From positions 1-64,000 of the forward strand of contig PSMU01000004.1 in the NCBI GenBank assembly GCA_040290255.1: a DNA stretch of 64,000 bases, written 5' to 3'. The notes below the pieces were generated by a model, which was given only the letters and a program-made list of their open reading frames with translations, did no database searches and was not told the origin of the DNA. Numbering within the stretch: the stretch's first letter is position 1; every line of letters begins with the position of its first letter. Source of the stretch: Nitrososphaerota archaeon. Its GTDB lineage: Archaea; Thermoproteota; Nitrososphaeria; PSMU01. The position numbers were made by a program, and so were the translations under genes. This document shows positions 1-17,637 of this stretch, piece after piece.

Positions 1-482
1 CACGCTCAGCTCAAAGATAGGCAGCGCGGTGGCCAACTTAACGAGCGCCATCAGCGCGGTAAGCGGCAAGATAGACAGCGCCGTCTCCACCCTCTCGGGC
101 AAGGTCGATAGCGCGGTGAGCACGCTCAGCTCAAAGATAGACAGCGCCGTGAATAGCGCGGTGAGCACGCTCAGCTCAAAGATAGACAGCGCGGTCTCCA
201 CCCTCTCGGGCAAGGTCGATAGCGCGGTGAGCACGCTCAGCTCAAAGATAGACAGCGCGGTGGCCAGCTTAACGAGCGCCATCAGCGCGGTAAGCGACAA
301 GATAGATAGCGCGGTGAGCACGCTGACCAGCACCGTGAATAGCGCGGTGAGCACGCTCAGCTCAAAGATAGACAGCGCGGTCTCCACCCTCTCGGGCAAG
401 GTCGATAGCGCGGTCTCATCGCTGACCAGCACCGTGAATAGCGCGGTGAGCACGCTCAGCTCAAAGATAGACAGCGCGGTCT
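1..482 (+). repeat. Coding tandem repeats of about 33 bp
   Basis: Near-identical copies of agcgcggtgagcacgctcagctcaaagatagac and gtctccaccctctcgggcaaggtcgatagc. Confidence 0.95.
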
Positions 483-595
483 CGAGCATTCAGGCGAGCG
501 TGGGCTCGCTCAGCACGTACGTCATAGCGCTGATCGTCATCGCGGTCATCGTGCTCGCGCTGCAGATCGTCACCCTCGCGAGGAGGCGAAGTTAA
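1..595 (+). CDS. C-terminal part of a repetitive S/A/V/T-rich membrane-anchored surface (stalk-like) protein; 5' end lies outside the window
   Basis: Frame is open from base 2; 11-residue repeats (AVSTLSSKIDS, AVSTLSGKVDS, AVSTLTSTVNS); C-terminal hydrophobic helix YVIALIVIAVIVLALQIV followed by RRRS. Confidence 0.85.
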   Translation, partial: TLSSKIGSAVANLTSAISAVSGKIDSAVSTLSGKVDSAVSTLSSKIDSAVNSAVSTLSSKIDSAVSTLSGKVDSAVSTLSSKIDSAVASLTSAISAVSDKIDSAVSTLTSTVNSAVSTLSSKIDSAVSTLSGKVDSAVSSLTSTVNSAVSTLSSKIDSAVSSIQASVGSLSTYVIALIVIAVIVLALQIVTLARRRS

Positions 596-655: not shown

Positions 656-991
656 TTGCCCTGGGGCTCCTACATGCCCTCGAGGCTCCTTGCCGGGGCC
701 CTGAACTTCTTCCTCTGGGGCCTGGGCAGCGCCCTCGCCCACAGGCGGCGCCACCACCTGCTGGCCCTGCCCGCCGGCCTCTGGCTCTACTTCCTGGGCC
801 TGGCCACGCGCAACGCCTATCTGCTCATCCCGGTCCTGCTGCTCAGCGCCTTCTTCTCGCTCGAGGCGCTGTTGGCCCCTCAGCAGGCGCTTAGGGCAAC
901 GCACGGCCCCTCCTTCTGCCCCGGCTGCGGGAGGAGGTATCCCGAGGAGGCGCTCTACTGCCCCTTCTGCGGCACGAAGAGGGCGGTGTAA
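656..991 (+). CDS. Small membrane protein with C-terminal zinc ribbon
   Basis: Hydrophobic segments, then CPGCG...CPFCG; start could be ATG 674. Confidence 0.7.
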   Translation: MPWGSYMPSRLLAGALNFFLWGLGSALAHRRRHHLLALPAGLWLYFLGLATRNAYLLIPVLLLSAFFSLEALLAPQQALRATHGPSFCPGCGRRYPEEALYCPFCGTKRAV

Positions 992-1023: not shown

Positions 1024-2418
1024 GTGAGGGGGCTGGCCTACAGGAAGGAGGCCCTGGACCCTCTCTACGGCTACATCTACCTCACGGAGCTGGAGGTGAG
1101 GCTCATCGACACGCCCATCTTTCAGAGGCTGGATAGGCTGCTCCAGAACTTCAGCGCCCACTATGCCTTTCCCAGCGCCACGCATACGCGCAAGGCCCAT
1201 GCGCTGGGCGTGATGAGCCTGGCCCACAGGGCCCTGGCCAAGCTGCTCTTCAGGCTCAGGCCTCATCATGGCGCGGCGCTGCTCTTCGTGCCCACCACGC
1301 TGGAGGAGAGGGGGCCGGGGCTGGAGGATTACTACGTCGAGGGCTTTGACTGGTGGAACGAAAGGCTCGAGCGGGGGAGGTTCAGCGAGCTGCTGCAGGC
1401 CATGCGCCTGGCCGCGCTCCTACATGACGTGGGCCATGCCCCGCTCTCCCATGTCTTCGAGGAGGCCTGCCGCGCGCTCGGGCTGGACTTCGACCACGAG
1501 AAGAGGTCGCTGGAGCTGATGGAGCGGCTGGGCGAGGGGCTCAGGGGAAGGGCCGGGGAGGTGATGCGGGGAGCCCTGGAGCTCTTCAGGCGCGTGGTCG
1601 AGCCCGGGCATCGCTCATACGTGAAGGAGCTGCTTTCGGGCCCCATGGACGTCGATAAGATCGATTACCTGAACAGGGACGGCTACCATTCGGGGGCCCT
1701 GGAGTACGGCCTCATAGACCAGGAGCGCATCCTCGACTCCTTCTACGTCAAGCAAGGGCAGCTGGTCTTCCTGAGCTCCAACCTGCCCTCCGTGCTCAGG
1801 GCCTTCGCCTCGGCGGAGCAGATGTACAGGAACGTCTTCTACCATAAGACCTCGCGCAACGTGGACCTCATGTGCGTCGAGATGCTCAGGGCCGCGAGGC
1901 CCGTCGTGGAGAGGCTGCTCGCCTCCCGCGAGCCCTTCGAGGGCTATGGCGACTATGAGCTGCTCCGGGAGCTGGCCAGGGCGGACCTGCCCAGGGCCTC
2001 GGAGCTGGCCCAGGGCCTGCTCTCGAGGAGGCTTTACTTCAAGGCGCTCTACCAGGCCCCCGTGCCCAGGGATCGCTTCACGGAGGAGCTGAGGCGGGCC
2101 CTTGCCGAGCTGGAGCAGCGCTACTCGGAGCTGCAGGCGCGCATAGACCACGTGGAGGCCAGGCCCATAAGGCAGGAGTACGGGGCCCTAAGCTCCTGGC
2201 TCCGCGCGCCCAAGGTCTATCTGCCCGAGGAGGATAGGCTGCTCTCGCTGCGGGAGGCGCAGCCCCTGCTGGAGGAGCTGGCCCTGCGCTTCAGCGTGGA
2301 TGTGAGGGTCTTCGTGGCCAGGCGCTTGGCCAAGCACCCCAGGGCGGAGGCCCTCGTGCGCGAGGCCAGGGCGCTCCTAGGCCCTGGCGCCCCTCCTGCC
2401 CCTCCTCCTTATCGCTAG
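1024..2418 (+). CDS. HD-domain phosphohydrolase (dNTP triphosphohydrolase/SAMHD1-like family)
   Basis: DPLYGYI, FQRL, HTRKAHALG, LLHDVGH, DVDKIDYLNRD, VFYHKT motifs. Confidence 0.9.
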   Translation: MRGLAYRKEALDPLYGYIYLTELEVRLIDTPIFQRLDRLLQNFSAHYAFPSATHTRKAHALGVMSLAHRALAKLLFRLRPHHGAALLFVPTTLEERGPGLEDYYVEGFDWWNERLERGRFSELLQAMRLAALLHDVGHAPLSHVFEEACRALGLDFDHEKRSLELMERLGEGLRGRAGEVMRGALELFRRVVEPGHRSYVKELLSGPMDVDKIDYLNRDGYHSGALEYGLIDQERILDSFYVKQGQLVFLSSNLPSVLRAFASAEQMYRNVFYHKTSRNVDLMCVEMLRAARPVVERLLASREPFEGYGDYELLRELARADLPRASELAQGLLSRRLYFKALYQAPVPRDRFTEELRRALAELEQRYSELQARIDHVEARPIRQEYGALSSWLRAPKVYLPEEDRLLSLREAQPLLEELALRFSVDVRVFVARRLAKHPRAEALVREARALLGPGAPPAPPPYR

Positions 2419-3579
2419 GAGGCGCCGCAGCAGCTCAAGGGCCGCCTGATAGTGCTGCGCGCCCACCTCGCTCAGGGCCATCTCCCGGGCCCTGGCCTTC
2501 GCCACCTCCTGAAGGAACGTGAGCGCCTGCCGGGCCCCCAGCTCGGGCCTTTCGTCGAGCAGCCGCGCCAGCTCCTCCTTCACGGGCCCGGGCAGGGGCT
2601 CCAGCCTCAGCTCGGCCAGCGAGGGCCTGGGCAGGGCCTGCACCCTGGCCTCCGCGAGCGCAAGCCGCGCCCTGCCGCTCAGCCTGGGCAGGCGGAGCAC
2701 CGCGGGCACCTCGCCCAGCAGCCACCTGGGCAGGCCCTGCTCCTCCCTGGCTATGAGCAGCGTCCTGGCGTGCAGCTCGAACTCCACCTCCTCCCCCTTC
2801 ACCTGCACGCTCGCCCTGCCCCCCCTCAGCAGGCCCCTGAGCACCCTCTGCTCCTCTGCCCTCATGGCCTCGAGCCCCTCCACGGGCACGACCCCGGGGC
2901 CCGAGAGGCGCTCCGCCAGCTCCCTCGCCTCAAGGGCCCCCAGGCTTATCCTCTGGTAGCCCATCGCCTCCAGCAGGGCCATCGCATAATCAGAGAAGCC
3001 CTCCCCCTCCTCGATCACGAGCACGTGCAGCCGATCGGAGAGCAGCAGCGCCCTGAGCAGCTCCATCGCCAGGAGCAGCGGGGGCTCCTCGAGCGGCGCG
3101 CGCAGCCGCCGCAGCAGCTCCTTCATGCCCTCGGCGCTGGGCCGGGGCATCAGCCTGGACCTTATGTAGCCCGCATACAGCCTCGCGTTGAGCTTGTACT
3201 CGAGCCAGGGCCCATAGCTGAGCGGCTGCTCCGCATTCCTCATGATGCGGAACTCATAGGCCCCGTCCAGGCCCCTCCTCTCGACCACGACGTAGGGCGA
3301 GAAGAGCCCCAGCCTTGCCTCTATCGCCCTGAGCGTGAGCTCGGGGTCATAGTCCTTCGAGGTCCTCACGACGATCGCCTCGGAGACGCTCACCTCCCTC
3401 ACGACCCTATCGGCCAGCGCGGCCCTGGCCCTGTTGACGGCCTTGAGCAGCTCCTCCTCCCAGCCCTTGAACCTCACATCATAAGGGTCGAGCCTTGCCA
3501 GGTCCTCCAGCGTCCTTATGCCGTTGAGCGCCAGCAGGCCCGAGAGGCGGGGGCTTATGCCCGTCAGCGCGCCCTCCAT
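2377..3579 (-). CDS. HhH-like N-terminal domain fused to a degenerate MCM-like AAA+ domain
   Basis: N-terminal GISPRLSGLLALNGIRTLEDLA; the C-terminal half follows MCM motif order with Walker A, Walker B and arginine finger substituted. Confidence 0.65.
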   Translation of the reverse strand: MEGALTGISPRLSGLLALNGIRTLEDLARLDPYDVRFKGWEEELLKAVNRARAALADRVVREVSVSEAIVVRTSKDYDPELTLRAIEARLGLFSPYVVVERRGLDGAYEFRIMRNAEQPLSYGPWLEYKLNARLYAGYIRSRLMPRPSAEGMKELLRRLRAPLEEPPLLLAMELLRALLLSDRLHVLVIEEGEGFSDYAMALLEAMGYQRISLGALEARELAERLSGPGVVPVEGLEAMRAEEQRVLRGLLRGGRASVQVKGEEVEFELHARTLLIAREEQGLPRWLLGEVPAVLRLPRLSGRARLALAEARVQALPRPSLAELRLEPLPGPVKEELARLLDERPELGARQALTFLQEVAKARAREMALSEVGAQHYQAALELLRRLLAIRRRGRRGARA

Positions 3580-3752: not shown

Positions 3753-5699
3753 ATGGGCTACCTCTGGCAGCCCCCCAGGGAGCTGGCGGAGCGCGCGAAC
3801 CTGCGCCCGCTCATGGAGAGGCTGAGGCTCGACAGCTACGCGGAGCTGGTGAGGTGGAGCATAACGCGCCTGGAGAACTTCTGGGCGCGGCTGCCCGAGG
3901 AGCTGGGCGTGGAGTGGTTCCGCCCTCCTAGGCAGGTCGTGGACCTCTCCAGGGGGCCCGAGTGGGCGCGCTGGTATGGAGGGGGCGCGCTGAACGTAGC
4001 TTACAACGCCCTCGAGAGGCCCGCGAGGCTCAGGGGCCCCCATCCGGCCGTCATCTGGAGGGGGGAGGATGGCCGCAGGAGGGCGCTCAGCTATTCCCAG
4101 CTGAACGAGGATGCCAGCAGGCTCGCGGGCTACCTGGCCGAGCTGGGCGTGGGGCCCGGCGATAGGGTGGCGCTCTATCTCCCCATGCTGCCCGAGACGG
4201 TGGCCTCCCTCTTTGCCCCCCTCAAGCTGGGCGCGATCGCGATGCCCATCTTCTCGGGCTTTGCGCCCGAAGCCGTAAGCGTGAGGCTCAGGGATGCGGA
4301 GCCCAAGGCGCTCATAACCTGCGATGGCTACCTCAGGAGGGGTAATAGGGTGGGGCTGCTGGACCAGGCCAGGGAGGCGCTGAAGCTCTCGGGCCTCGGC
4401 GCCAAGCTCATCGTGGTGGAGAGGCTGGGCGGCCTCGAGCTGCTCGAGGGGGAGGTGAGCTATGAGGAGGCCATAAGGGAGGGCGAGCCCTTGGCGAGCA
4501 GGGCGCTGGACCCCGAGCACCCCGCGCTGCTGCTCTACAGCTCGGGCACCACGGGCCGGCCCAAGGGCTGCGTGATCTCACATGCGGGCGCGCTGCTGCA
4601 GCCCTCCAAGGAGATCTTCTATAACCTGGACCTAAAGCCCGAGGAGCGCCTGCTCTGGGTCACGGACATAGGCTGGATGATGGGCCCTTGGCAGATGATC
4701 GGCGCGCAGTTCCTGGGCGCCACGCACATCATCCTGGAGGGGGCCATCGACTATCCCCCCTCCAGGCTGTGGCGCATCGTGGAGCAGGAGAGGGTCACGC
4801 ACCTGGGCTTCGCGGCCACGGTGGCGAGGCTGCTGAGGCGCTACGGCAGGGATGCGCTGCTGGAGCACGACCTCTCTTCGCTGCGCGTCTTCGGCAACAC
4901 GGGCGAGCCCATAGACCCCGGCACCTGGCTCTGGCTGATGAAGGAGGTGGGCGAGGAGAGGTGCCCCATCATCAACCTCTCCGGCGGCACGGAGATCTTC
5001 GGCTGCTTCCTGCTCCCCTCGCCGCTCGTCCCGCTCAAGCCCTCCACGCTCTGGGGGCCGGGCCTGGGCATGGACGTCGACGTCTTCGATGAGCAGGGCA
5101 GGCCCGTGAGGGGCCAGGTGGGCTACCTCGTGGCGAAGAGCCCCGCACCCTCGATGACCAGGGGCTTCTGGAGGGATGAGGCGAGGTACCTGGAGACCTA
5201 CTGGTCCAGGTTCAGGGGCGTCTGGTATCATGGCGACTGGGCGCTCATCGATGAGGAGGGCTACTGGTTCCTGCTGGGCAGGGCCGATGACGTGATCAAG
5301 GCGGCGGGCAAGAGGGTGGGCCCCGCGGAGATAGAGGCCCTGCTGAACGCGCACCCCCTCGTGGCGGAGTCGGCCTGCGTGGGCGTGCCCAGCGAGCTGA
5401 AGGGCGAGGAGGTGGCCTGCTTCGTGGCGCTGAAGCGCGGCGCGGAGCCCTACCCGGGCCTGGAGGAGGAGCTGAGGAGGCGCGTGAGGAGGGGGCTGGG
5501 CAGGGCCTTCGAGCCCTCCTATCTGCTCTTCGTGCCCTCGCTCCCCAGGACCCGCTCGGGCAAGATCATGAGGAGGCTGCTGAGGGCCGCGGCGCTGGGC
5601 CAGCAGGTGGGCGATGTGAGCGCGCTGGAGAACCCCGAGGCCCTGGAGCAGGCCAGGGCGGCCTGGGAGGCGATGAGGCAGCGTGGGCTCGTGGCCTAG
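3753..5699 (+). CDS. acs: AMP-forming acetyl/acyl-CoA synthetase
   Basis: YSSGTTGRPKG AMP-binding loop, DIGWMMG, GRADDVIK, PRTRSGKIMRR. Confidence 0.85.
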   Translation: MGYLWQPPRELAERANLRPLMERLRLDSYAELVRWSITRLENFWARLPEELGVEWFRPPRQVVDLSRGPEWARWYGGGALNVAYNALERPARLRGPHPAVIWRGEDGRRRALSYSQLNEDASRLAGYLAELGVGPGDRVALYLPMLPETVASLFAPLKLGAIAMPIFSGFAPEAVSVRLRDAEPKALITCDGYLRRGNRVGLLDQAREALKLSGLGAKLIVVERLGGLELLEGEVSYEEAIREGEPLASRALDPEHPALLLYSSGTTGRPKGCVISHAGALLQPSKEIFYNLDLKPEERLLWVTDIGWMMGPWQMIGAQFLGATHIILEGAIDYPPSRLWRIVEQERVTHLGFAATVARLLRRYGRDALLEHDLSSLRVFGNTGEPIDPGTWLWLMKEVGEERCPIINLSGGTEIFGCFLLPSPLVPLKPSTLWGPGLGMDVDVFDEQGRPVRGQVGYLVAKSPAPSMTRGFWRDEARYLETYWSRFRGVWYHGDWALIDEEGYWFLLGRADDVIKAAGKRVGPAEIEALLNAHPLVAESACVGVPSELKGEEVACFVALKRGAEPYPGLEEELRRRVRRGLGRAFEPSYLLFVPSLPRTRSGKIMRRLLRAAALGQQVGDVSALENPEALEQARAAWEAMRQRGLVA

Positions 5700-13148: not shown

Positions 13149-13331
13149 ATGGCGCTGAGGGGAGAGGCCGTGTGCAGCTTCTGCGGCAGGAAGGTGCTGC
13201 CGGGCACGGGGCTGCTCTTCGTCAGGAACGATGGCTCCTTCTACTGGTTCTGCTCCAGCAGGTGCAGGAAGAGCCAGCTCAAGCTTCACAGGGACCCGAG
13301 GCGCTGGAAGTGGGCCAGGAGGAGGGCATGA
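13149..13331 (+). CDS. rpl24e: 50S ribosomal protein L24e
   Basis: CSFCG..PGTG..FCSSRC. Confidence 0.96.
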   Translation: MALRGEAVCSFCGRKVLPGTGLLFVRNDGSFYWFCSSRCRKSQLKLHRDPRRWKWARRRA

Positions 13332-13747
13332 TGGAGCGCACGCTCTGCTTCATAAAGCCCGATGGCGTGAGGAGGGGGCTGGTGGGCCGCATCCTGCTGC
13401 GCTTTGAGGAGAGGGGCCTGGGGCTCGTGGCCCTGCGCCTGCTGACGCTGGACAGGAGGGGCGCGGAGGAGCTCTATGCGCCCCATAGGGGGAAGCCCTT
13501 CTTCGAGGAGCTCATCTCCTACGTCACCTCCGGGCCCATCGTGGCCTTCGTGCTGGAGGGGGAGGGCGCGGTGGAGGAGGCGCGCCGCCTCATAGGGGCC
13601 ACGGACCCTCAGCGCGCGGCTCCGGGAACGGTGAGGTGGGACTATGGCCTCTCCATCACGATGAACACGATCCACGCCTCGGACTCCAAGGAGAGCTATG
13701 AGAGGGAGTTGGCCGTGCTCTTCCCCGGCCTGGCCAGCAAACCATAA
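13328..13747 (+). CDS. ndk: Nucleoside diphosphate kinase
   Basis: ERTLCFIKPDGV, GATDP, NTIHASDS; ATG 13328 overlaps the rpl24e stop. Confidence 0.96.
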   Translation: MMERTLCFIKPDGVRRGLVGRILLRFEERGLGLVALRLLTLDRRGAEELYAPHRGKPFFEELISYVTSGPIVAFVLEGEGAVEEARRLIGATDPQRAAPGTVRWDYGLSITMNTIHASDSKESYERELAVLFPGLASKP

Positions 13748-13771
13748 GAGCGCAGCCCCCCAGCGCACCAC

Positions 13772-16021
13772 GTGGAGCGCCGGCTGAGGCAGCCCGTGGT
13801 GGTGGTGCTGGGGCATGTAGATGCGGGCAAGTGCGTGGGCCCCTCCACGCTCCTGCAGCTGGAGGAGGGGGAGCTGAGCGCGCGGGAGGCCTTCGAGGCC
13901 CAGCCGGGGCCCGAGTGGAGCGGGCCCGACTACAGGCTGAGGCCCGCAAGGGGCCTGAGGCTGCTCACCTACGATGCGAGCACGGACCGCTTCCTGTGGA
14001 GGCAGGCCAGCTTCGCCTGGAAGAGGAGCGCCGCGCGCCTGCTGAGGCTCACGTTCGACAACGGCGCGCGCCTGCTCGTCACGCCCGAGCACCCCTTTCT
14101 GGTCTCGCTGGGATCGCTGCGGCTCTACCTTCCCGCGGCCCTGCTGCGGGAGGGCATGGGCGTCATAGCCCATGGCGGGGGCGATGGGGCCAGCCGCGCG
14201 CACGTGGCGGCGGTGGAGCCCCTGCGGGGGTCGGGCTACGTCTATGACTTCACGGTGGAGGGCACGCAGTCCTTCTGCGCCGAGGGCCTGGTGCTGCACA
14301 ACACCTCGCTGCTGGACAGGATCAGGGGCACGGCCGTGCAGGCCAGGGAGGCAGGCGGCATTACCCAGCACATAGGCGCGAGCCTGATCCCCAGCTCCAC
14401 GCTCAGGGCGCTCTGTGGCCCCCTTCTGGAGAGGTTCAGGATAGAGGTGCTCATCCCGGGCCTGCTCTTCATCGACACGCCCGGGCACGAGGCCTTCTCG
14501 AACCTCAGGATGAGGGGGGGCTCGGCCGCGGACATAGCCGTGCTCGTGGTGGACGTGACGAAGGGCTTCGAGGCCCAGACGTATGAGAGCCTTGAGCTGC
14601 TCAGGCAGAGGAGGGTCCCCTTCCTGGTGGCGCTGAACAAGGTGGACCTGCTGCCCGGCTGGAGGCCCCGGCCCACGCTCTTCATCGGCGAGGCGCTGCG
14701 CGCGCAGGAGCCCTTCACGCAGAGGAGGCTGGAGGAGCGCCTGTATGAGGTCGTGGGCACGCTCTCAAGGCTGGGCCTGCAGGCCGAGGCCTTCTACAGG
14801 GTCAGGGACTTCACCAGGCAGGTGAGCATCGTGCCCGTGAGCGCCAGGACGGGCGAGGGGATCGGCGAGCTGCTGGCGCTGCTGCTGGGCCTGACCCAGC
14901 AGTATCTGAAGGAGAGGCTCACGCTCAGCGGCGAGAGGCCCAGGGGGCTGGTGCTGGAGGTGAGGGAGGAGGAGGGGCTGGGCCACACGGCGAACCTCAT
15001 CCTGCTGGATGGCCTGCTCAGGGTGGGGCAGAGGCTGGTGCTGGTGAAGAGGCAGGGGCCCGTGGTCACGAGGGTAAGGGGGCTCTTCATGCCCAAGCCC
15101 CTGGATGAGATGAGGGACCCCCGGGATAAGTTCACGCCCCTGGAGGCGGTCTCGGCGGCGGCCGGCGTGAAGCTGGCGGCGCCCGAGCTGGAGGGCGTGC
15201 TCGCCGGCTCTCCCTTCGAGGGCCTGGAGGAGGGCGAGGAGGCCCTGGGCGTGGGGAGCAGGCTGATGGAGGAGGTCAGGTCCGTGCTCATCGAGTCCGA
15301 GAGGCTGGGCGTGGTGGTGAAGGCCGATACGCTCGGCTCGCTGGAGGCGCTCTCCTCCATGCTCAGGGCGAGGGGCATACCCATAAGGCGCGCGGACCTG
15401 GGCCCCGTGAGCAGGAGGGATGTGGTCGAGGCCTCCGTCGTGAAGGAGAAGGACGAGTTCCTGGGCGTCGTGCTGGCCTTCAACGTGCGCGCCCTGAAGG
15501 AGGCGGAGGAGGAGCTGCAGGCCAGGCGCGTGAAGGCCTTCTTCGGCCAGGTGATCTACAGGTTGGTGGAGGAGTATGAGGCTTGGGCCCAGGAGGAGAG
15601 GGAGCGGCGCGCGAGGGAGGAGCTGCAGGCGCTCACGCAGCCCTGCAAGCTCAGGGTCCTGGAGGGGTTCATCTTCAGGCGCAACGACCCCGCCATCTTC
15701 GGCATAGAGGTGTTGCTGGGCAGGCTGAAGCCCAGGGACCGCCTGATGAGCGCGGAGGGCGAGGAGGTGGGCGAGGTGAGGCAGATAGAGGAGAGGGGCC
15801 GGCCGCTGCCCGAGGCGCTGAAGGGCATGAAGGTGGCCATATCGGCCAACGGCATCGTGATCGGCAGGAACGTGAAGGAGGGCGATGTGCTCTATACCCT
15901 CCCGCCCCCGGAGCACGTGAAGCTGCTCAGGGAGAAGTACTGGGAGAGGCTGGGCAACGATGAGAGGGAGCTGCTGGAGGAGATCCTGCGCGTGAGGAGG
16001 GCGGCGGGGCACTACGCCTAA
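13772..16021 (+). CDS. infB: Translation initiation factor aIF5B (IF-2), intein-containing
   Basis: GHVDAGK|TSLLD, GGITQHIGA, DTPGHEAF, NKVD. Confidence 0.96.
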   Translation: MERRLRQPVVVVLGHVDAGKCVGPSTLLQLEEGELSAREAFEAQPGPEWSGPDYRLRPARGLRLLTYDASTDRFLWRQASFAWKRSAARLLRLTFDNGARLLVTPEHPFLVSLGSLRLYLPAALLREGMGVIAHGGGDGASRAHVAAVEPLRGSGYVYDFTVEGTQSFCAEGLVLHNTSLLDRIRGTAVQAREAGGITQHIGASLIPSSTLRALCGPLLERFRIEVLIPGLLFIDTPGHEAFSNLRMRGGSAADIAVLVVDVTKGFEAQTYESLELLRQRRVPFLVALNKVDLLPGWRPRPTLFIGEALRAQEPFTQRRLEERLYEVVGTLSRLGLQAEAFYRVRDFTRQVSIVPVSARTGEGIGELLALLLGLTQQYLKERLTLSGERPRGLVLEVREEEGLGHTANLILLDGLLRVGQRLVLVKRQGPVVTRVRGLFMPKPLDEMRDPRDKFTPLEAVSAAAGVKLAAPELEGVLAGSPFEGLEEGEEALGVGSRLMEEVRSVLIESERLGVVVKADTLGSLEALSSMLRARGIPIRRADLGPVSRRDVVEASVVKEKDEFLGVVLAFNVRALKEAEEELQARRVKAFFGQVIYRLVEEYEAWAQEERERRAREELQALTQPCKLRVLEGFIFRRNDPAIFGIEVLLGRLKPRDRLMSAEGEEVGEVRQIEERGRPLPEALKGMKVAISANGIVIGRNVKEGDVLYTLPPPEHVKLLREKYWERLGNDERELLEEILRVRRAAGHYA
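13832..14302 (+). mobile_element. Mini-intein (157 aa) in the aIF5B P-loop
   Basis: Begins with Cys after GK, block B TPEHPF, block F VYDFTVEG, ends HN before Thr; no LAGLIDADG domain. Confidence 0.95.
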
Positions 16022-16052
16022 GCTTTAAACGAGGCCCCCAGGCGCCCCCTAC

Positions 16053-16436
16053 GTGGTCAGCTTCAAGCTGGTCGTCGCGGACCCGGAGACGGGCAGGTGC
16101 ACGCAGCTGGAGGTCAAGGAGCCCGCCGCCCGCGCGCTGCTGGGCCTGAAGATAGGCGATGAGCTGAGCGGCGAGCTGGTGGGCCTGAAGGGGCGCCTGC
16201 GCATCACGGGAGGGAGCGACGCCAGCGGGGCGCCCATGAGGCCCGACGTGCAGGGCCCGGGCCGGCGCTACGTGCTGCTCTCGGGCCCGCCCGGCTTCAG
16301 GCCCACGAGGGAGGGCGAGAGGAGGAGGAAGCTCGTGCACGGGAACACCATCAGCGAGGACATAGTGCAGATAAACGCGGTGCTCGTGAAGAAGGAGGGG
16401 AGAAGGCGTGAGGCTCGCGCTGCCCAGGCAGCCTGA
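16053..16436 (+). CDS. rps6e: 30S ribosomal protein S6e
   Basis: FKLVVADP, ITGGSDASGAPMRPDV, GERRRKLVHGN. Confidence 0.96.
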   Translation: MVSFKLVVADPETGRCTQLEVKEPAARALLGLKIGDELSGELVGLKGRLRITGGSDASGAPMRPDVQGPGRRYVLLSGPPGFRPTREGERRRKLVHGNTISEDIVQINAVLVKKEGRRREARAAQAA

Positions 16437-17637
16437 GTGCAACATAGGCACCGCGGGCCACGTGGACCACGGCAAGACCACGCTCGTGGAGGCCCTTACG
16501 GGCATATGGACGAGCCGCCACTCGGAGGAGCTGAGGAGGGGCATCACCATAAGGGTCGGCTATGCCGATGCGGCCATCTATTTCTGCGAGGGCTGCGAGC
16601 CGCCCGAGGCCTACAGCACCAGCCCGCGGTGCCCCGGCTGCGGGCGCGAGGCGCGCCTGCTCAGGGTCGTGAGCTTCGTCGACTGCCCGGGCCATGAAGC
16701 GCTCATGACGAACATGCTCTCGGGGGCCGCGGTGATGGATGGCGCGCTGCTGCTGATCGCGGCCAACGAGAAGGTGCCGCAGCCGCAGACCAGGGAGCAC
16801 CTCATGGCGCTCCAGATGCTGGGCATAGGCAGCATCGTCATCCTGCAGAACAAGGTGGACCTGGTCACGAAGGAGCAGGCGCTGGAGAACTACAGGGCGA
16901 TAAGGGAGTTCATCCGCGGAAGCGTGGCCGAGGGGGCGCCCATCATCCCCATCTCGGCCCAGCACAGGCTGAACGTGGATGCCGTGCTGCAGGCGATAGA
17001 GGAGAGGATCCCCACCCCTCCCCGCGACCCCCGCGCCAGGCCCCTCCTGCCCGTGCTGAGGAGCTTCGATGTGAACAGGCCGGGAACGCCCATATCGGAG
17101 CTCAGGGGCGGCGTGATCGGCGGGAGCCTGATGCAGGGCACCTTCAGGGCGGGCGATGAGATAGAGGTGAGGCCCGGCATCATCGAGGACGGCAGGGCGA
17201 CGCCGCTCTTCACCAAGGTGACCTCCATAGGCACGGGCGCGGGGCTGGTTGAGGAGGCCCGCCCGGGAGGGCTCATAGCCCTGGGCACGGCGCTCGACCC
17301 CAGCCTCACGAAGGCCGATAGGCTCGTGGGCTGCCTCGTGGGGCTCGTGAACGAGCTCCCCCCCGTGCTCACGAGGGCCGAGCTGGAGGTGTCGCTCTTC
17401 GAGGTGGCCGTGGGCGATCCCGAGCTCAGGAAGGTGCAGCCGCTGCAGAAGGGCGAGCTGCTGAGGCTGAACATAGGCACGGCCGCCGTGCCCGCGCTGC
17501 TGCGCCAGGTGGGAAAGGGGAAGGTGGAGGCGGAGCTCAAGAGGCCCGTCTGTGCCCCTCAGGGCGCGCGCGTGGCCGTGAGCAGAAGGATAGGCGAGAA
17601 GTGGAGGCTCATAGGCTCCGGGAGGCTCCTCGCCTAG
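16408..17637 (+). CDS. eif2g: Translation initiation factor aIF2 gamma subunit
   Basis: NIGTAGHVDHGKTT, zinc ribbon, DCPGHE, QNKVD, RSFDVNRPG. Confidence 0.97.
   Translation: MRLALPRQPECNIGTAGHVDHGKTTLVEALTGIWTSRHSEELRRGITIRVGYADAAIYFCEGCEPPEAYSTSPRCPGCGREARLLRVVSFVDCPGHEALMTNMLSGAAVMDGALLLIAANEKVPQPQTREHLMALQMLGIGSIVILQNKVDLVTKEQALENYRAIREFIRGSVAEGAPIIPISAQHRLNVDAVLQAIEERIPTPPRDPRARPLLPVLRSFDVNRPGTPISELRGGVIGGSLMQGTFRAGDEIEVRPGIIEDGRATPLFTKVTSIGTGAGLVEEARPGGLIALGTALDPSLTKADRLVGCLVGLVNELPPVLTRAELEVSLFEVAVGDPELRKVQPLQKGELLRLNIGTAAVPALLRQVGKGKVEAELKRPVCAPQGARVAVSRRIGEKWRLIGSGRLLA

Follow-up and report, generated by a model that had tools for sequence, protein, structure and literature searches.

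The window analysed here is the whole stretch of 64,000 nucleotides at the start of contig PSMU01000004.1 of a Nitrososphaerota archaeon (assembly GCA_040290255.1). Near its left end the minus strand carries, at 2377-3579, an intact open reading frame (ORF) for a protein of 400 amino acids (aa), beginning at ATG and free of internal stops, as a sequence-only reading of this DNA had reported; an identical protein, P0001, is present in public collections. The C-terminal half of the window protein resembles, in degenerate form, the AAA+ motor of the minichromosome maintenance (MCM) helicase, and its N-terminal 145 residues form a different domain. We have high confidence in the structural and evolutionary description that follows, namely MCM ancestry, loss of the catalytic residues, loss of the N-terminal tier, the helix-2 insert and the winged helix of MCM, and gain of a new N-terminal domain. 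The protein is best seen as a pseudo-ATPase of MCM descent that carries a new head. The features of the gene are listed below, with their basis in brackets; host MCM is the canonical 680-aa MCM of the same genome.

2377-3579, minus strand: the whole gene, a 400-aa ORF with its stop codon at 2377-2379 (ORF list)
3460-3579, minus strand: helix-hairpin-helix (HhH)-like motif (GISPRLSGLLALNGIRTLEDLARLDPYD), residues 1-40, including DLARxDPYD, the most conserved stretch of the family (HHH_5 and model helices)
3145-3459, minus strand: long helix 41-59, four-stranded beta-beta-alpha-beta-beta unit 60-114 and long helix 119-143, within residues 41-145 (AlphaFold2 model)
3034-3144, minus strand: linker and pre-Walker-A helices of the AAA+ module, residues 146-182 (the hhalign pairing begins at 151, host MCM 282; model helices 149-158 and 166-180)
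2680-3033, minus strand: predicted degenerate MCM-type AAA+ alpha/beta core with the helix-2 insert deleted, residues 183-300 (hhalign, Foldseek and hmmsearch against the PDB)
2989-3012, minus strand: Walker A remnant EEGEGFSD, residues 190-197, opposite host GDPGTAKT, with Lys replaced by Ser and Thr by Asp (hhalign)
2863-2886, minus strand: Walker B remnant PVEGLEAM, residues 232-239, opposite host CIDEFEKM, with Asp-Glu replaced by Glu-Gly (hhalign)
2776-2817, minus strand: beta-hairpin at the pre-sensor-1 position, residues 255-268, with Lys262 near the tip (model strands 255-260 and 263-268; host SVAKGGIVATL)
2707-2721, minus strand: Arg-finger position LLGEV, residues 287-291, opposite host LLTRF, with Arg replaced by Glu290 (hhalign; no Arg in 22 of 22 family rows)
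2527-2535, minus strand: sensor-2 position ARQ, residues 349-351, opposite host HRQ, with R350 kept (hhalign)
2401-2679, minus strand: predicted helical lid domain, MCM_lid-like, residues 301-393 (MCM_lid matches among the relatives; alignments reaching host 598)
2380-2409, minus strand: basic low-confidence tail RRRGRRGARA, residues 391-400, where MCM runs on into its winged helix (pLDDT below 50 for 394-400)

Against Pfam the window protein matched HHH_5 alone (E 0.093, 13.7 bits against a cut-off of 27), with no match to the MCM family PF00493 at E≤1. Against NCBIfam it gave two weak matches in the first 60 residues, to the HhH region of a RecB-like nuclease (E 0.0079) and to the NusA C-terminal repeat (E 0.02), and the best phmmer matches in the PDB were not below E 0.07. 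A word-indexed search of 5.8 billion proteins returned two clusters, the protein itself and P0002 (412 aa, 69% identical, and 81% identical across the first 145 residues), and an exhaustive HMMER search of 1.84 billion representatives returned 12 proteins at E≤0.001, 10 of them at E≤1e-10 and 400-455 aa long. Wherever a database copy has a name, it is 'hypothetical protein'. An alignment of 13 sequences (A1), 22-69% identical to the query, was used in the profile searches. When its members were scanned one by one, Pfam MCM_lid (PF17855) matched six of the 13 (best E 8.2e-7), the window protein not among them, HHH_5 (PF14520) matched four (best E 0.0012), AAA_5 two and MCM (PF00493) one (E 0.013), and the NCBIfam MCM model matched two (E 1.1e-6). 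No Pfam or NCBIfam model scored above threshold with the window protein, and the matches in its relatives were weak and partial at best.

The relationship of the C-terminal half to MCM was seen with profiles and, for the family as a whole, is much stronger than chance would give. In an hmmsearch of the PDB with A1, all 60 matches shown (133 were obtained at E≤10) belonged to the MCM family, with E from 2.8e-15 to 1.6e-5, and the alignments placed profile positions 245-438 on residues 390-601 of SsoMCM, from Walker B through the end of the lid. The widest coverage, positions 198-429 including the Walker A region, was obtained with the MCM homologue of Methanopyrus kandleri (PDB 3f8t, E 9.3e-12). 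Profile-profile alignment with hhalign gave a probability of 97.4% (E 1.6e-11) against the host MCM plus one relative, and of 98.6% (E 1.2e-15, 266 columns) against 15 Nitrososphaeria MCMs (A4), pairing window residues 151-398 with host MCM 282-598. Over 301 genomes of the class the A1 profile also recovered the canonical MCM of about 695 aa in most, with E down to 2.6e-19. As a specificity control, this profile gave 56 bits with two canonical MCMs, whereas four AAA+ ATPases from related genomes, about 320 aa long and read as MoxR-type, reached 13-22 bits. Bacterial ComM, which the sequence-only reading had put forward as an MCM-like precedent, is not supported as kin by these scores, nor does Mg-chelatase/ComM occur among the 11 Pfam families matched.

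The predicted structure agrees with the profiles. An AlphaFold2 model built with A1 (mean predicted local distance difference test score, pLDDT, 88.1; predicted template-modelling score, pTM, 0.66) was compared with the PDB by Foldseek, and all 33 matches listed to rank 50 were MCM, with a best E of 5.1e-11; the template-modelling (TM) scores by query, 0.44-0.49, fit a match of roughly the C-terminal half of the model. The C-terminal 250 residues comprise an AAA+ core and lid of MCM type. Two parts of the canonical module are missing. Both hhalign runs leave a 13- to 17-residue gap at the helix-2 insert, and the protein stops two residues past the aligned lid (398 of 400, opposite host 598 of 680), indicating loss of the C-terminal winged helix.

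The state of the ATPase motifs was read from the hhalign alignments to the host MCM and, for the family, from an alignment of 22 distinct rows on the A1 model. The five pairings with MCM motifs proposed by the sequence-only reading, in order but degenerate, were all reproduced. At Walker A, LHVLVIEEGEGFSD stands opposite host VNVLLVGDPGTAKT, and the Lys that had been called lost is Ser196; at Walker B, GVVPVEGLEAM stands opposite GVACIDEFEKM. The VQVKGEEVEFELHARTLL stretch lies opposite the host pre-sensor-1 hairpin up to LNARTSIL, with the register uncertain by one residue. Sensor 1 (host AAANP) faces a gap or IAREE, so that its Asn is absent from the window protein, and the supposed loss of the Arg finger was borne out, LPRWLLGEV standing opposite LPIPLLTRF. 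At sensor 2 GARQALTFLQEVAKARAR is paired with THRQLETLVRLAMARAR and the Arg is retained. In MCM the Arg finger and sensors 2 and 3 act in trans (PMC4619765).

Across the family the motifs are degenerate to different degrees. No row has Arg in the Arg-finger column (0/22), which holds Leu in most rows and Glu, Gln, Asn, Tyr or Lys elsewhere, Lys occurring in two near-identical rows. The P-loop ends in Lys-Ser/Thr in 3 of 22 rows and in Arg-Ser/Thr in 15, and the acidic Walker B pair (Asp-Asp or Asp-Glu) is kept in 16 of 22 but not in the clade of the window protein; Lys-Thr together with Asp-Asp is found in a single row (L003). The rows fall into three clades.

Clade A (window protein, P0002 and P0003/L025): no Walker A Lys; Walker B Glu-Gly
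Clade B (P0004 and P0005): Walker A keeps A-K-[ST] in a near-MCM context; Walker B Glu-Asn or Glu-Gly
Clade C (16 rows, Conexivisphaerales-type and relatives): W-x5-N-[RK]-[ST] at Walker A (Arg in 15, Lys in 1); Asp-Asp or Asp-Glu at Walker B in 16/16

In clade C an Asn also occurs near the sensor-1 position in 14 rows. The Walker residues are catalytic in AAA+ proteins, including MCM, and a protein without them should not hydrolyse ATP; in MCM, loss of the helix-2 insert abolishes unwinding. Judged by these residues the window protein would be clearly dead as an ATPase, and members of clade C may still bind some ligand.

The N-terminal 145 residues were modelled separately from alignment A2 with high confidence (pLDDT 93.4, pTM 0.86), giving helices 10-18, 24-29, 41-59, 79-90 and 119-143 and strands 60-65, 69-74, 97-104 and 107-114. 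This domain is the most conserved part of the family: the invariant columns of A1 lie mostly in the N-terminal 135 residues (A28, P32 and Y33 among the first 40), and its ratio of nonsynonymous to synonymous substitution (dN/dS) is the lowest. A Foldseek search of the domain against the PDB gave no match at E≤0.001, the best being the ribosomal protein uL23 (E 8.9e-3 over about 75 columns, non-significant). No MCM N-domain was found among the 50 matches listed and the hhalign pairing starts only at host residue 282, in agreement with the earlier observation that the zinc-binding and oligonucleotide-binding (OB) N-domain of MCM is not evident. The 145-residue module stands in the place of subdomains A, B (zinc) and C (OB fold) of MCM.

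The proposal of an N-terminal HhH motif found weak support. It is favoured by HHH_5 matches in four of the 13 members and by two model helices, but the match of the window protein is weak (E 0.093) and its hairpin reads G-I-S (G-I-S or G-V-S in its clade, G-[LI]-G in most other members) where G-h-G is expected. A search of PDB sequences with the A2 profile gave sub-threshold matches (E at least 0.16), 42 of 42 being DNA polymerase beta, Pol IV or Dbh chains aligned at profile positions 4-38, and the three printed alignments fall on a single HhH-like stretch of polymerase beta. We regard the HhH reading as plausible but weak. A separate observation concerns P0013, a protein of 1200 aa with about ten HhH-like repeats (...GIGPK.E..L...GIYTFEQLA..DP.EL..W...), which matched query residues 5-38 with E 2.5e-4; by this likeness the first 40 residues of the query would belong to a widespread repeat-forming HhH-type module.

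The family is rare and its distribution patchy (9 of 301 class genomes, 12 proteins among 1.84 billion representatives). With the window protein as query, 5 of 61 related genomes gave a match, its own genome and four of the six in the sister family f2. The A1 profile found full-length members in nine of the 301 class genomes (E 1e-129 to 1e-174, frames of 402-496 aa): the own genome (f1), six of nine in f2 and both in f10. The other matches listed covered profile positions of about 244-438 only, in frames of canonical-MCM length. The 301-genome tallies include three genomes marked as unpublished (G230, G131 and G282), which for the family count as negatives only. Among 401 genomes sampled from the phylum, f2 and f10 not being represented, the own genome alone matched at E≤1e-30. 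Records containing relatives are labelled Conexivisphaerales, Nitrososphaerota, Nitrososphaerales or Thaumarchaeota archaeon. In metagenomes, a single-protein scan for the P0002 cluster gave 170 pattern matches and no relatives, and an alignment-based scan retrieved 11 loci of the family, none from the P0002 cluster.

Open frames were found at all family loci. Estimates of dN/dS were made by the Nei-Gojobori method for 13 pairs, of which eight, all inside clade C, were informative and gave 0.05-0.18: 0.051 for L042/L043 (dS 0.28), 0.085 for L028/L031 (dS 0.77), 0.088-0.090 for L031/L034 and L028/L034, 0.13-0.16 for four pairs among L002, L004, L008 and L009, and 0.18 for L002/L035. Both halves of the protein are constrained in these pairs (0.01-0.16 for the N-terminal half, 0.08-0.22 for the AAA+ half). 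Among the uninformative pairs, L002/L026 are identical in protein, and for L003/L034 and L005/L003 dS is undefined or saturated. Purifying selection acts in clade C, the largest of the family, and probably also in the clade of the window protein, judging from the undisrupted 69% identity to P0002. The sequence-only reading had named two outcomes that would count against it, a lack of MCM/AAA+ matches and pseudogene-like decay of homologues; MCM matches were obtained, and the homologues show purifying selection in place of decay.

The genome to which the window belongs (1.21 Mb in 9 contigs, 91% complete) carries one canonical MCM, on another contig, and two Orc1/Cdc6 proteins above cut-off. 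A canonical MCM was also present in all four family-bearing relatives tested. In three of these four its frames are 1411-1808 aa long with split, intein-like matches, and in several related genomes (L013-L019: G001:C1, G059:C87, G033:C9; also G313, G340, G348 and G305) MCM frames of 1054-1808 aa match the P-loop domain in 2-4 pieces, the pattern expected of inteins within MCM. At L025 a Cdc48-type double-AAA ATPase of 1174 aa (13304-16828, plus strand) has Intein_splicing and LAGLIDADG matches between its AAA domains.

A tree of AAA+ modules was built by a quick method from 71 rows (22 of the family, 45 Thermoproteota MCMs and, as outgroup, 4 AAA+ proteins read as MoxR-type) over 317 columns, with the intein-split MCMs left out. 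The family was monophyletic (SH-aLRT support 99), as were clades A, B and C (99, 95 and 99). Its stem measures 2.81 changes per column, with evolution several-fold faster than in MCM, and it joins the Thermoproteota MCMs at an unresolved polytomy, where long-branch effects are to be kept in mind. In the approximately unbiased (AU) test, union with the MCMs of the same class was not rejected (p 0.60), and it is possible that the family arose as a duplicate of the lineage's own MCM.

A mobile-element or defence origin was considered and rejected. No match was obtained by tblastn in the phage collection (query P0005) or in the plasmid collection (query window protein), none of the 13 members matched a PADLOC defence family, and the neighbouring genes are of housekeeping type. 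In PHROGs a single family, 'DNA helicase', was matched by four of the 13.

Gene order in clade C is isoleucyl-tRNA synthetase (IleRS), the family gene and an inositol-monophosphatase-family gene (Inositol_P), beside a convergent Trm112-like gene. IleRS lies directly upstream in 14 of the 16 loci examined and Inositol_P is adjacent in 14 of 16, one of the two exceptions being on a truncated contig; the gene keeps this place in the chromosome in three GTDB families. At L025, in clade A, Inositol_P lies directly upstream instead, that is on the other side, and IleRS is absent. Neither gene is near the family gene in the window, and the Inositol_P gene of that genome is on another contig. In three genomes without the family gene (L096, L097 and L098, that is G050, G044 and G005; two of f2 and one of f6) IleRS, Inositol_P and Trm112 are immediate neighbours, indicating that the gene is truly absent from that site in close relatives and is dispensable. 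The block is conserved in the class, with the family gene lying between IleRS and Inositol_P in some genera and missing from others. Since the same block exists without it, the synteny of clade C may reflect an inherited position and not functional coupling. A functional tie to Inositol_P, adjacent in two clades in different order, was down-weighted for this reason and because the two genes are unlinked in the genome of the window.

In the window, where G+C is about 64-71%, the family gene overlaps by 42 nt at its 3' end with a convergent gene, and the next gene on its other side is divergent. The neighbours are:

1024-2418, plus strand: HD-domain gene (HD and HD_assoc_2), convergent with the family gene
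3753-5699, divergent from the family gene: acetyl-CoA-synthetase-type gene (AMP-binding, ACAS_N)
656-991, plus strand: short ORF for a putative membrane protein whose C-terminus is a zinc ribbon (Zn_Ribbon_1, E 7.3e-6); it separates the repeat ORF from the HD-domain gene
1-595, plus strand: ORF open at the window start, with many 11-residue-type repeats (SKIDSAVSTLSGKVDSAVSTL...) and a hydrophobic C-terminal anchor

Farther out lie Memo-like, GHMP-kinase, FMN-dependent-dehydrogenase-type and polyprenyl-synthetase genes. These surroundings look like housekeeping genes, and nothing nearby suggests a mobile element. The HD-domain protein has an architecture like that of dNTP triphosphohydrolases, which puts a probable nucleotide-pool enzyme beside an MCM derivative; the pairing is suggestive and was seen in this genome only. 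For the repeat ORF, Pfam gave below-cut-off matches to apolipoprotein- or phasin-like amphipathic repeats only (E 1.4e-12, 48 bits against a cut-off of 90), and its minus-strand mirror ORF is probably a repeat artefact.

Compared with canonical archaeal MCM (SsoMCM, PDB 6mii, 4fdg and 3f9v, and the host MCM), the AAA+ core and lid are homologous and the motifs run in the same order, and the window protein keeps the sensor-2 Arg and, in the model, a hairpin at the pre-sensor-1 position. Unlike canonical MCM, of about 690 aa, it has 400 aa; the tier of subdomains A, B (zinc) and C (OB) is missing, as are the winged helix and the helix-2 insert, and other residues stand at the Walker A Lys, the Walker B Glu, sensor 1 and the Arg finger. 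MkMCM2 of M. kandleri (PDB 3f8t), the PDB entry with most profile coverage, is likewise an extra archaeal MCM homologue, and it is reportedly inactive by nature. According to PMC4619765, it has subdomains A, B and C as well as the AAA+ domain, that is the N-terminal tier absent from the present family. In eukaryotes MCMBP (Mcb1, ETG1) represents a known category of MCM-related factor (PMC9018068). It too is non-catalytic and MCM-derived and is a possible functional analogue; unlike the present family it is confined to eukaryotes and has a different domain architecture, and MCMBP does not occur in the set of 11 Pfam families that gave matches at E≤1. MoxR-type proteins and RuvB have the general AAA+ fold in common with the family, but MoxR-read proteins score far below MCM with the A1 profile and no RuvB chain was among the 60 PDB matches shown. 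RuvA/RuvB pairs HhH motifs with an AAA+ motor. A non-exhaustive full-text literature search found no description of a family such as this one.

The ESM Atlas contains the exact window protein. Its first match by language-model features (0.87, 177 shared) is a cluster of 469-aa archaeal proteins labelled 'MCM P-loop' (81 members, Thermoplasmatota commonest), similar in length to the family but less degenerate, PF00493 being recognised in 100% of members. Residues 1-145 of the Atlas's own model of the window protein superpose on this cluster with a TM score of 0.63 over 128 residues, and the cluster may combine the same N-domain with an MCM module whose ATPase is less degenerate. Word-indexed searches for the 469-aa type gave 14 matches with an N-terminal alignment against longer proteins and 6 with a C-terminal alignment sized to exclude full MCMs, all of them members of the present family.

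We interpret these results, with a probability of about 0.6, as indicating a conserved chromosomal MCM paralogue that has become a pseudo-ATPase and serves as a non-catalytic DNA-binding or scaffold accessory. ATP hydrolysis and MCM-style DNA unwinding would have been lost. The protein would contact DNA through the HhH motif, through the hairpin kept at the pre-sensor-1 position and through its basic tail, and its inert AAA+ shell would offer a docking surface for a partner. Since a canonical MCM and two Orc1/Cdc6 proteins are still present in the host, and the gene is missing from the corresponding site in close relatives, it would be an accessory and not a core component; that its role lies in DNA replication or repair is a more tentative suggestion, to which we give somewhat less than even odds. 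The functional candidates of the sequence-only reading, namely co-assembly with or control of MCM and a part in recombination or DNA uptake, stay at the level of suggestion.

Several points weigh against this interpretation. The window protein by itself gives no significant MCM match, so that the MCM assignment rests on the 13-sequence profile and on predicted structure. The Atlas's own model (pLDDT 0.72) matches RuvB clusters with a TM score of 0.47, nearly equal to the 0.49-0.53 for MCM-like clusters, and fold alone therefore does not separate MCM from other AAA+ families. The term 'dead' may not hold family-wide, because the large clade keeps Asp-Asp and a conserved N-[RK]-[ST]. We infer DNA binding from a weak HhH signal, given the G-I-S hairpin of the window protein and the sub-threshold PDB profile matches. 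The only pair within the clade of the window protein, window/L025 (39% identity), is saturated and its dN/dS of 0.75 is uninterpretable. Synteny offers no link to replication or repair, the neighbours being IleRS, Inositol_P and Trm112 in the large clade and the HD-domain and acetyl-CoA synthetase genes in the window. On the side of function the argument depends on sequence and predicted structure, with no characterised relative among the matches.

A narrower explanation would make the protein an MCM-binding subunit or chaperone whose dead AAA+ domain docks on the host MCM, at a ring position or on free subunits, and aids assembly, loading, gating or unloading in the manner of MCMBP. Being MCM-derived, it is, apart from MCM, the sole host protein with an MCM-shaped AAA+ surface, and a canonical MCM accompanies it in the own genome and in all four family-bearing relatives tested. 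We nevertheless consider this explanation doubtful. The N-terminal tier, which in MCM drives hexamer formation, is absent; replacement of the Arg finger in 22 of 22 rows and degeneration of Walker A and B in most are not what a preserved ring interface would lead one to expect; the 11 Pfam families matched include none of MCM-binding proteins, and the gene is not linked to that of MCM, which in the own genome lies on another contig. A complex prediction with host MCM residues 265-680 and the full-length protein (score 0.00, mark 0.32), made without controls, speaks neither for nor against binding. It is unlikely, in our view, that the family works as a nucleotide-binding switch, in which the remodelled P-loop of the large clade (W-x5-N-[RK]-[ST]) with Asp-Asp would bind a nucleotide or phosphate ligand and the clade of the window protein would have lost even that. 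Arg-Ser/Thr or Lys-Ser/Thr at the P-loop end (15 and 3 of 22), the acidic Walker B pair in 16, an Asn near sensor 1 in 14 and purifying selection on the AAA+ half all favour such a switch, but the glycines of the P-loop have given way to other residues, the loop exceeds that of MCM by one residue, no member has the Arg finger, and in the window protein (EEGEGFSD, PVEGLEAM) none of these residues is found.

The gene order of the large clade, with IleRS and Inositol_P on either side and Trm112 convergent, could instead point to an RNA- or translation-linked factor, as could the recurrence of Inositol_P on the other side at L025 in the clade of the window protein, the faint uL23-like fold of the N-domain (E 8.9e-3, Atlas TM score about 0.4) and the weak NusA-repeat match. 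Such a role seems to us very unlikely: the block occurs without the family gene in three genomes and the linkage may be an inherited position, it is absent from the genome of the window, the uL23 matches are non-significant, and MCM ancestry together with the HhH motif favours DNA. Divergent 'shell' MCM copies derived from integrated elements are well known in archaea (PMC3914693), and a decaying, functionless relic of such a copy would account for the long stem, the evolution much faster than that of MCM and the patchy distribution. It is hardly credible, however, in view of the intact frames at all loci and dN/dS of 0.05-0.18, the syntenic chromosomal position fixed across three GTDB families, the conserved and confidently folded N-domain, the housekeeping neighbours, and searches of the phage, plasmid and PADLOC collections that gave nothing, PHROGs yielding 'DNA helicase' only.

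The reading as a non-catalytic MCM paralogue bears on how archaeal MCM genes are understood. Archaeal MCM is a simple model for the eukaryotic replicative helicase, and extra archaeal MCM copies have mostly been read as mobile-element cargo. The present family differs from such cargo in being chromosomal and selectively maintained, without motor chemistry and the ring-forming N-terminal tier and with a predicted new head of DNA-binding type. It would represent a helicase recycled into a non-enzymatic factor, in parallel to MCMBP; the inactive subunits of clamp loaders are another parallel. An archaeal counterpart of MCMBP, an inert MCM paralogue whose HhH head tethers DNA and whose dead shell captures MCM subunits, is a speculative extension by analogy that we think improbable; if it were true, some Nitrososphaeria would own a dedicated factor for MCM assembly, loading or unloading beyond Orc1/Cdc6. 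The family and the 469-aa cluster could also be parts of a broader group of 'short MCMs', so far unrecognised, that have this head in common; in that case ATPase activity might survive in the Thermoplasmatota members. The three clades, one losing both Walker A and Walker B, one keeping the Walker A Lys and one keeping the Walker B acids, provide a natural series in which to ask what an inert AAA+ shell is kept for, and naming the family would improve the annotation of Conexivisphaerales-type and related genomes.

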